Sequence record: MW876471
Strand: one strand, 5' to 3'
Source of the DNA: Escherichia phage P762
Length of the DNA stretch: 38,954 bases
Shown here piece after piece: positions 5,433-7,466 of the stretch (positions within the stretch are counted from its first letter, which is position 1; each line of letters starts with the position of its first letter). The position numbers and the translations under genes were made by a program. A model generated the notes under the pieces. The model was not told where the DNA came from. It ran no database searches and was given only the letters and a program-made list of their open reading frames with translations.

Positions 5433-5660
5433 TTAAATCATACTCATTAGGACGTATCCTTCAGCGATGTCATCAACGTCAGCAATGTGGACAACCTTAC
5501 GTGCTACCTGTTGTCCAGTATACCCGTTGTCCCACTCATTCAGGATAAGCCAATCGCCAACCTTAAAGTCCCGGTCGTTGAGTCTTAGCTCTGCTGTCTT
5601 TAGACCTAGTTGTACCGGACCAAAGTGCTGGCGGTGAATCTTCAGGTTGTGACTAGCCAT
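5433..5660 (-). CDS. DUF3850/ASCH (PUA-like) small protein, inserted between genes 11 and 12
   Basis: 75-aa ORF with GGAGG SD; start overlaps gp11 stop (TAATG); pattern H.LKI...F..V..G.KT.E.R.NDRDF.VGD.L.L.E.D...YTG...EGYV.MS matches the DUF3850 signature as recalled. Confidence 0.75.
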   Translation of the reverse strand: MASHNLKIHRQHFGPVQLGLKTAELRLNDRDFKVGDWLILNEWDNGYTGQQVARKVVHIADVDDIAEGYVLMSMI

Positions 5661-6226
5661 TAGTCCCTCCCGATGTCGGACATCATGTTGTAGCGACCCG
5701 TGTCCATCTCGTACTCCATAACCTGCTGATAGAGTTCTGCTTCCTGCTCACGAAGGTATAGCTCTGACTCTGGGCTACCGAAGAACTTAGCATTGAACTC
5801 ACGGCTAGCTTTAGTGACGATGTAGTCCCTGAAGACAACAGGCATCTCAGCGAATGGTTTCATCTCCACAAGCTCTACCGTGATAGGGTCGGTGAAAGTG
5901 GTTGACTGAGTGGATAGGTCGTACAGGTATCCACCCATGTTGCTGTAGTAGCTGGTGGCCCCCGCGGTCATTACACGAAGGTATGACGGCAGGAATCGAA
6001 TCCTATTGTCTTGGACATCAGGTGTCAGGACGGCAGCTTCGTTGATATTAAAGTTCCAGCCTTTAGCTTGGACCTGACGATTGACACGATGCAGTATACG
6101 TTGAGCGTTAGAGACGTCAGCGTTCCCCTCGTCAAGCTGTAGGACTGCTGGTTCACCGATAGCAGCTAACATATCGTTGATGGCATCTAAGTCATCGTTA
6201 GCATTCAGTGGAATGTATTGAGCCAT
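5660..6226 (-). CDS. gp11: tail tubular protein A (gp11)
   Basis: 188-aa ORF; AINDMLAAIGEP, IVTKASREFN and MEYEMDTGRYNM blocks match T7 gp11. Confidence 0.9.
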   Translation of the reverse strand: MAQYIPLNANDDLDAINDMLAAIGEPAVLQLDEGNADVSNAQRILHRVNRQVQAKGWNFNINEAAVLTPDVQDNRIRFLPSYLRVMTAGATSYYSNMGGYLYDLSTQSTTFTDPITVELVEMKPFAEMPVVFRDYIVTKASREFNAKFFGSPESELYLREQEAELYQQVMEYEMDTGRYNMMSDIGRD

Positions 6227-6246
6227 AAGTCTCCTCTCACTTTAAG

Positions 6247-6290
6247 CAAAAAAAACCCCTCAAGCACCCGAAGGCACCCAAGGGGTTTCA
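6247..6290 (-). terminator. T-phi-like rho-independent terminator after the capsid gene
   Basis: minus-strand AACCCCTTGGGTGCCTTCGGGTGCTTGAGGGGTTTTTTTT: GC hairpin with TTCG loop and U-run, same place and near-same sequence as T7 T-phi. Confidence 0.85.
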
Positions 6291-6291
6291 A

Positions 6292-7466
6292 TTAGTTGTT
6301 GGACTCAGCCAGTTTAGCGGCCCTGTTCGCAGCACGAGTACGCGCAGCTTTCTGTTGAGGAGTTAGAGTCTCCTCTTCAGGTGCAGCCGCTACTGTAGCG
6401 ACGTTAGGTTGGCTAAAGGTGCTTACGCCGCTGGGCTGAAAACCAGTGCGCCAGCCGCTTCAGGACGCAGACCACCGTGACCCATAGCGTATTTACCAAC
6501 AATCAGGTCGCCCTGAGCATCGACGTCACGGTCACGTTCCAGCGCCAAGTCACGCAGCTTCACAGTACCTACAGCAGAACGGTGAGAGAACAGACCCACA
6601 ACGTTATCCATAGCAACTTTAACGTCTCCAGTAGCAGTTGCCGGGAATGCGTGTTTCTGACCGGAAGCGATAGAGATACCATCGTCACCACGAGTCTCAC
6701 CAGCGCCACCCTGTACCAGATGCGGAACTTCAACAACAACGAAGCCCATCACGTTACGGATGTTACCAGTCTCTGGGTCAATCAGCGCAGCATAGTTAGC
6801 AGCGTTCGGCATCAGAGCAGCGAGGATTGCAGAGTAGTTGTCAGGCGTGGTGTAGAAGTAACGGTCGCCAGCAGGAACGTAGTTGGAGGTTAGCTTCGCA
6901 CGAGCAATGGTCAGTTGACCAATGATTGCTTCACCCAGTTTAGCCGGGGTGTCGAGGTCAGCTTTCTTGCCTACTTCAAGTACGGACGCGGTGCCCAGAC
7001 CAGCAATATTCTCGTTGGATGCAGCCGGGAGGTTACACAGGAGAGCCATTTCAGCCAGAACAGCACCATCGGCAGCGATAGCCAGAGCTTCCCCCAACTG
7101 GTTGGAATACTCGCCAGCCACGTCATAGTGGTTCATAGCGTCTTCAATGTCGAAAATCATCACATCGGCAGTCAGCAGACCATCAATGGTAATCACTTTC
7201 TCGGTATGTTTGATACCTTTACGCTTATCAGACAGTCGCTCACCCGGAGCCAGATACACACCAGAGGTGCGACCCATGACCGGGAACTGAGCAGACTTAC
7301 CGTTCTGAATGGTACGGACAATATGCTTGTCAGCAGTTACAGAGCGGCGAGTGAATGCGGTCAGGACTTCACCAGCAAAGACCTTCAGGAACAACGCAAG
7401 AGCGTCGGAACTGGACTTGCCTTTACCTTGGTCTGTACCAATTTTCTGACCCGGAACGTTTGCCAT
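6292..7466 (-). CDS. gp10B: minor capsid protein 10B, predicted by -1 ribosomal frameshift near the end of 10A
   Basis: heptamer GGTTTTC (~6438..6444) 5 codons before the 10A stop; the -1 frame is open for 47 further codons (QPSGVSTFSQPNVATVAAAPEEETLTPQQKAARTRAANRAAKLAESNN) and stops at ~6292, right against the terminator hairpin. Confidence 0.55.
6423..7466 (-). CDS. gp10A: major capsid protein 10A
   Basis: 347-aa ORF; long identical blocks to T7 10A (KHTEKVITIDGLLTAD, MPNAANYAALIDPE, HRSAVGTVKLRDLALER, AKYAMGHGGLRPEAAGA). Confidence 0.97.
   Translation of the reverse strand: MANVPGQKIGTDQGKGKSSSDALALFLKVFAGEVLTAFTRRSVTADKHIVRTIQNGKSAQFPVMGRTSGVYLAPGERLSDKRKGIKHTEKVITIDGLLTADVMIFDIEDAMNHYDVAGEYSNQLGEALAIAADGAVLAEMALLCNLPAASNENIAGLGTASVLEVGKKADLDTPAKLGEAIIGQLTIARAKLTSNYVPAGDRYFYTTPDNYSAILAALMPNAANYAALIDPETGNIRNVMGFVVVEVPHLVQGGAGETRGDDGISIASGQKHAFPATATGDVKVAMDNVVGLFSHRSAVGTVKLRDLALERDRDVDAQGDLIVGKYAMGHGGLRPEAAGALVFSPAA

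Follow-up and report, generated by a model that had tools for sequence, protein, structure and literature searches.

The best described counterpart of the arrangement analysed here is gene 10 of bacteriophage T7, whose 10A/10B pair of capsid proteins is produced by a -1 ribosomal frameshift (Condron, Atkins and Gesteland 1991, as cited in PMC5009743 and PMC1635266), and in the T7 record (NC_001604) 10B is entered as a joined CDS of two pieces. One of these papers assigns ~10% of translations to 10B (PMC1635266). The other, a 2016 recoding review, takes G_GU to stand for X_XX in the heptamer of T7 gene 10, and describes an unexplained long-range need for the CCCC of the terminator, >200 nt 3' of the site (PMC5009743). 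In the T7 particle, 10B makes up ~5-10% of the virion and its extension is described as unstructured and located on the surface (PMC8923235). For growth of T7 and T3 the protein was reported to be dispensable (PMC3276506).

Several further systems are available for comparison. In phage K1F a -1 frameshift was described as 'resulting in the addition of 44 triplets', and fusion of GFP to the C-terminus of K1F g10b gave stable fluorescent virions (PMC6277420). The same g10b locus also displayed EGF (PMC10367136) and Ig-like adhesins (PMC13370021). In the Kluyvera phage Kvp1 the 10B shift was placed at TTTTCA, and mass spectrometry of a band from the virions confirmed the product (PMC2579914).

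The stretch of DNA analysed here (38,954 bp, referred to as the window) is a K1F-like phage of the T7 family, belonging to Kayfunavirus and given in reverse complement. Its capsid region shows 96-97% identity to Kayfunavirus phages (Hafnia phage yong1, ST31, the Salmonella PRF-SP series and K1F), the best match over 25 kb is phage ST31 (94.3% identity, 98% coverage), and the order of genes 9, 10, 11 and 12 is syntenic in relatives. The ORF of 10A matches the Pfam family PF21703 (Gp10A-like, T7-type major capsid) with E=1.8e-105, and residues 1-346 of its 36.3 kDa product match the T7-like capsid chains 9vvq, 7y23 and 2xvr in the PDB. Gene 11 starts at 6226. Between the tail tubular genes 11 and 12 we also observed a 75-aa ORF (5433-5660, minus strand) with a DUF3850/ASCH match (E=1e-19). 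PRF-SP2, SP7 and Penshu1 also have it, under the name 'hypothetical protein', whereas in the K1F records it is missing and gene 12 directly follows gene 11. The features of the 10A/10B region are as follows:

7466..6423, minus strand: gene 10A, major capsid protein, 347 aa (ORF list, Pfam and PDB matches)
6444..6438, minus strand: slippery heptamer G_GTT_TTC on Val-Phe codons, predicted -1 shift site (sequence, phase checked)
6438..6292, minus strand: 10B-specific extension in the -1 frame, from CAG 6438..6436 to AAC 6297..6295 with the stop TAA at 6294..6292 (translation)
6425..6423, minus strand: 10A stop TAA
6432..6425 (AGCGGCGU) with 6404..6397 (ACGUCGCU), minus strand: candidate weak 3' stem of 8 bp (folds)
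6289..6248, minus strand: Tphi-like intrinsic terminator, a 17-pair hairpin at 6289..6252 and then a T-run (terminator scan, folds)
6285..6282, minus strand: terminator CCCC, counterpart of the CCCC implicated in T7 frameshifting (position and presence only)

In the zero frame, the 3' end of 10A reads GCA CTG GTT TTC AGC CCA GCG GCG TAA. The first-pass annotation had located the heptamer GGTTTTC five codons ahead of the 10A stop, and TTC is indeed the fifth codon before this TAA. It had also claimed that after the shift the -1 frame stays open for 47 codons; the frame is open as claimed, however, we counted 48 sense codons before the TAA at 6294..6292, with the sequence QPSGVSTFSQPNVATVAAAPEEETLTPQQKAARTRAANRAAKLAESNN (QPSGV...AESNN). 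The position it gave for this stop, just before the terminator hairpin, was correct, as the gap to 6289..6252 is 2 nt. The 48 residues of the tail replace the final four residues of 10A, and the predicted 10B has 391 aa and 40.9 kDa, i.e., 44 residues and 4.6 kDa above 10A. Stretches specific to the tail are QPSGVSTFSQPNVATVAAAPEEETLTPQQK and the C-terminal LAESNN, and the tryptic junction peptide of the predicted 10B is YAMGHGGLRPEAAGALVFQPSGVSTFSQPNVATVAAAPEEETLTPQQK, 48 residues long. Upstream of 6459 the -1 frame is closed, so that the shift must fall within ~12 codons (6459..6423).

The same annotation had proposed that the locus mirrors the 10A/10B arrangement of T7, and the comparison bears this out. 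Both phages have the identical heptamer G_GUU_UUC in the same phase and on homologous Val-Phe codons, the T7 tail EETLTPAQEAARTRAANKA is homologous to the window tail EETLTPQQKAARTRAANRA with the core EETLTPxQxAARTRAAN, and in both the 10B stop is placed just before a Tphi-type terminator with CCCC. The differences are of size and surroundings: the tail has 48 codons in the window and 56 in T7, the Phe codon is followed by four zero-frame codons in the window and by three in T7, and the distance from the shift site to the terminator is ~150 nt in the window and >200 nt in T7. Moreover, T7 has a downstream G-run and a stable local fold (z=-2.4), whereas the window is without either.

The likeness to K1F is still closer. 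Both phages belong to the same genus and have the same heptamer and terminator, their 48-aa extensions are identical in amino acids, the 44-residue difference from 10A agrees with the published addition of 44 triplets, and the DNA of the 10A/10B region is ~96.5% identical. They differ in the end of 10A, which is PAE in K1F and PAA in the window, and in the candidate 8-bp stem, one pair of which is broken in K1F; in addition, the DUF3850 ORF mentioned above is found in the window and not in K1F. The Kayfunavirus phage Penshu1, which is 98.4% identical over the region, is annotated with 10B as a joined CDS by -1 frameshift.

Kvp1 resembles the window in that both shift on a poly-U/Phe codon, although it belongs to a different genus and is likened here by its description only. 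In T3 and phiYeO3-12, on the other hand, 10B arises by a shift on a Lys codon situated two codons nearer the 3' end, at C_CCA_AAG (PMC5009743, PMC2579914), and their tail is an Ig-like Big_2 domain of ~86-90 aa, whereas the window tail matches no Pfam family. There is no A_AAG in the last codons of 10A in the window; T3-type sites occur only in other loci. E. coli dnaX and the IS elements likewise yield two products with a common N-terminus by tandem or A-site -1 slippage. However, these employ the canonical X_XXY_YYZ heptamer (A_AAA_AAG) together with an SD-like element upstream of it and a strong hairpin or pseudoknot downstream. The window shows no sign of these: its heptamer is not canonical (G_GU instead of X_XX), and no SD-like motif (GGAGG-like) is visible in the 20 nt 5' of it.

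A programmed -1 frameshift yielding capsid protein 10B, as predicted by the first-pass annotation, is supported by the anatomy of the site, the homology to T7, the conservation described below and the known case of K1F. What we observed directly are anatomy, homology, conservation and the absence of other routes of expression, and we consider it very probable that the window, a K1F-like Kayfunavirus, employs the programmed -1 ribosomal frameshift of gene 10A/10B. In this reading, the majority of ribosomes would continue to the TAA and release the 347-aa 10A. A minority would undergo tandem -1 slippage, moving back by one base while tRNA-Val occupies GUU in the P site and tRNA-Phe occupies UUC in the A site; tRNA-Phe would then re-pair fully on UUU and tRNA-Val only partly, on GGU. 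Because of this partial re-pairing in the P site (GUU to GGU), the 2016 review treats the site as lying between a hexamer and a full heptamer (PMC5009743). The slipped ribosomes would read 48 more codons and halt 2 nt ahead of the terminator hairpin, giving the 391-aa minor capsid protein 10B, which is expected to account for a small share of the subunits co-assembled in the shell, with its mildly basic tail of 48 residues exposed on the surface. That the shift occurs, that its efficiency is ~5-10% and that the product enters the virion we infer from the experiments on T7, Kvp1 and K1F. The 70 nt downstream of the heptamer have z ~0 and are without the covarying stem-loop of sister genera (see below), so that the efficiency could be low.

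We next consider which 3' elements may assist the shift. The terminator and its CCCC are conserved across relatives, ~150 nt from the slip site. A spacer of 5 nt separates the heptamer from the candidate 8-bp stem, the 5' arm of which reaches to the first base of the 10A stop; in alignment A2 this stem shows 7 one-sided changes that preserve pairing, 0 two-sided changes and the one broken pair of K1F. The 70 nt downstream of the heptamer in the window fold no more stably than shuffled sequences (z ~0). When 6150..6600 was scanned against Rfam at E<=10, no family was assigned, and the only matches were sub-threshold and located on the terminator hairpin. A fold of 226 nt brings the 3' end of the heptamer and the spacer into pairing with the last part of the extension; this structure was not taken as a stimulator, since the slip site itself would be buried in it.

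A different picture is seen in sister genera. Berlinvirus, Helsettvirus, Minipunavirus and JJY1 possess a two-part stem-loop which starts 6 nt after GGTTTTC, with two-sided compensatory changes in 10 of its 19 pairs and with the 10A stop codon held in the outer stem, whereas T7 has the inner stem only. In the loci compared it occupies the following positions:

L086:1390-1443, L087:1390-1443, L089:1390-1443, L091:1380-1433 and L012:2236-2289: sister-genera stem-loop (alignment A1, columns 14-67)

In the phages with the stem-loop the 70 nt after the heptamer are unusually stable (z from -2.4 to -5.2), and in the lineage of the window this covarying stem-loop is absent. A metagenome scan for stem variants with the pattern CTGGTTTTC N{38,50} TAGCGGC matched 120 stretches, 0 of which passed the filter for capsid-gene context, as the pattern was too unspecific. 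Since the K1F-like lineage is devoid of the covarying stem-loop, its frameshifting may possibly rely on slippage at the heptamer only, on the weak 8-bp stem or on a long-range effect of the terminator CCCC, a proposal which we put forward tentatively and regard as rather doubtful. If true, the contrast between sister genera could help to dissect the long-range CCCC effect of T7.

Conservation was assessed in 78 related loci from viral contigs together with seven annotated phages of other lineages. The tail core LTPxQKAAxTRAxNKAxK is found behind GGTTTTC in T7, Kayfunavirus, Berlinvirus (P694, Yep-phi), Helsettvirus (fPS-9) and Minipunavirus (MmP1), as well as in Klebsiella phage KP2-1 and Pectobacterium phage JJY1, whose records give no genus. 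The core of the extension is common to at least five classified genera and two unclassified isolates. Pairwise against the window, dN in the -1 frame is 0.37-0.69 and dS is 1.5-4.0 (saturated against T7). As dN is well below dS, the extension is under constraint as a protein in that frame.

This bears on the alternative that the shift does occur, but only as background slippage at the heptamer, with the tail being a tolerated by-product devoid of a selected role. Such a reading would agree with the dispensability of 10B for growth of T7 and T3 (PMC3276506), with the description of the T7 tail as unstructured and on the surface (PMC8923235), with the lack of any Pfam domain at E<=1 in the 48-aa tail of the window and with our failure to find a convincing local stimulator. 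We consider it unlikely, as the low dN relative to dS holds for the conserved core across genera, the heptamer and the extension are strictly co-retained, and sister phages reuse the same site to attach Ig-like modules, which argues that low-copy display is selected. The programmed shift remains our preferred reading. The truncated extensions in L011 and Yep-phi (described below), together with the dispensability in T7 and T3, show that its product is not essential.

The tails found behind the shift site are of several kinds. K1F-like phages with capsids 94-99% identical share one heptamer and differ in their 10B tails (L010, L014-L024, L071, L075 and L076; ~2223 onward), which are either 48-aa T7-like tails, as in the window, or a module of ~94 aa that belongs to no Pfam family (one weak Big_3 match). 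L029 (capsid identity ~78%) carries, like T3, a Big_2 module of the Ig-like type. Hence the shift site is fixed and the tail behind it is an exchangeable cassette. A T3-type xxA_AAG one codon before the capsid stop is present in L032, L036, L049, L050, L052-L055, L058 and L066. These loci carry -1 extensions of ~87-95 aa (178 aa in L050) which by eye are like the T3 Big_2 module; among the Ig-like-type extensions of this comparison Pfam was run on the tails of T3 and L029 only, which match Big_2 at 4e-10 and 1e-8, respectively. L051 (1248-2453) and L062 have a variant heptamer, G_GTT_TTT, and behind it a -1 ORF that begins with a Big_2 domain (E=5e-11), extends over at least 400 codons and runs off the end of the locus; frameshifting may here produce a capsid decoration of very large size. 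Most loci without a slippery site have short -1 frames.

The heptamer itself was examined by counting distinct sequences with Val-Phe at the site. A -1 ORF of at least 40 codons follows in 33 of the 35 distinct GTT-TTC sequences. One exception, L011 (2223-2420), has a 1-nt deletion (GTAAGC to GTAGC) that brings the -1 ORF down to 15 codons, and the other, Yep-phi (L088, NC_023715, about 1374-1470), has a TAG within the extension; separately, in L014 a deletion joins a long tail to the terminator region. These three 10B defects are either natural or sequencing-derived. In 23 other sequences the Val codon is GTC, GTA or GTG, and 14 of these have short -1 frames. Among the rest, the GTG sequences have a T3-type A_AAG one codon ahead of the stop and then an Ig-like module, and the GTC sequences, which contain no slippery site, have -1 frames of 55-228 codons that probably run on by chance. 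GTT is invariant in the heptamer-bearing relatives, with CTG directly ahead of it in 32 of the 33 distinct ones, whereas neighbouring synonymous sites in the same set vary freely (CCA/CCT 17:16, GGC/GGT 18:15). In L027 and L028 (about 2211-2217), CGTTTTC (CTC GTT TTC) stands in place of GGTTTTC and a -1 tail of 96 codons is kept, which suggests that the heptamer can do without its first G and that the essential core is U_UUC.

It could be argued that the heptamer and the open -1 frame are a coincidence or a relic and that no meaningful 10B is made in the phage of the window. Taken by itself, the single sequence does little to oppose this. The first-pass annotation considered the -1 frame unlikely to be open by chance, which our statistics on the single sequence do not bear out: in mononucleotide shuffles of the 147-nt stretch 48 codons stay open with P=0.16, and 5 of 22 other ends of long ORFs in the window have longer -1 runs. 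GGTTTTC itself occurs once in both strands of the 38,954-bp window, against ~4.8 copies expected for a random 7-mer (own arithmetic), and this single copy is in the correct phase, inside the stretch where the -1 ORF can be entered. The open frame is thus weak evidence by itself, and its significance derives from the comparison with relatives. The explanation by chance or decay could also draw on the local RNA structure, which is not unusually stable, on the disrupted extensions of L011 and Yep-phi, and on the GenBank records of K1F, which annotate 10A only. It is nevertheless highly improbable, given the purifying selection on the extension in the -1 frame over at least five genera, the invariance of the heptamer in comparison to varying synonymous sites next to it, and the fact that the K1F extension, protein-identical to that of the window, carries cargo onto virions.

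Least probable of all is another route of expression, namely independent initiation at a small ORF, readthrough of the stop codon or slippage of RNA polymerase along the T run, and these three we rejected because of the lack of a start codon, the wrong frame and the short T run, respectively, even though the homologous stretch is annotated as a free-standing ORF in two records (fPS-9 g033 and JJY1_31). There is no ATG, GTG or TTG in the open -1 stretch of the window (6459..6295), hence the tail is not translatable as an independent ORF, and the extension appears in no ORF list at a minimum of 30 aa. Readthrough would not reach it, as the extension lies outside the zero frame, where a further stop follows 10 codons past the TAA. 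Four consecutive T fall far short of the tract lengths known for transcriptional slippage, which speaks against slippage of RNA polymerase. Furthermore, mass-spectrometry peptides of Kvp1 were assigned to gp10B residues 327-372, i.e., to a frameshift-extended capsid protein (PMC2579914).

The 10A/10B frameshift signal of the window is real but already well known, being classic in T7 and published for K1F, and for the biology of recoding it brings nothing new, save for a lineage without the stem-loop kept in sister genera. The main value of the analysis lies in annotation: the genome of the window should carry a joined 10B CDS of 391 aa, and many public Kayfunavirus records omit or mislabel 10B. 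The records of K1F list 10A only, PRF-SP2 calls the 347-aa ORF 'minor capsid protein 10B', and in the PDB entry 9vvq a 347-aa chain is named 'Minor capsid protein'. The separate-ORF annotations of the tail in fPS-9 and JJY1 lie outside the genus. Records with inconsistent 10A/10B annotation are AM084414, DQ111067, OM867676, LT960606 and PV433195. Finally, since the C-terminus of 10B is a proven low-copy display site in K1F, the phage of the window could be used for display in the same manner.
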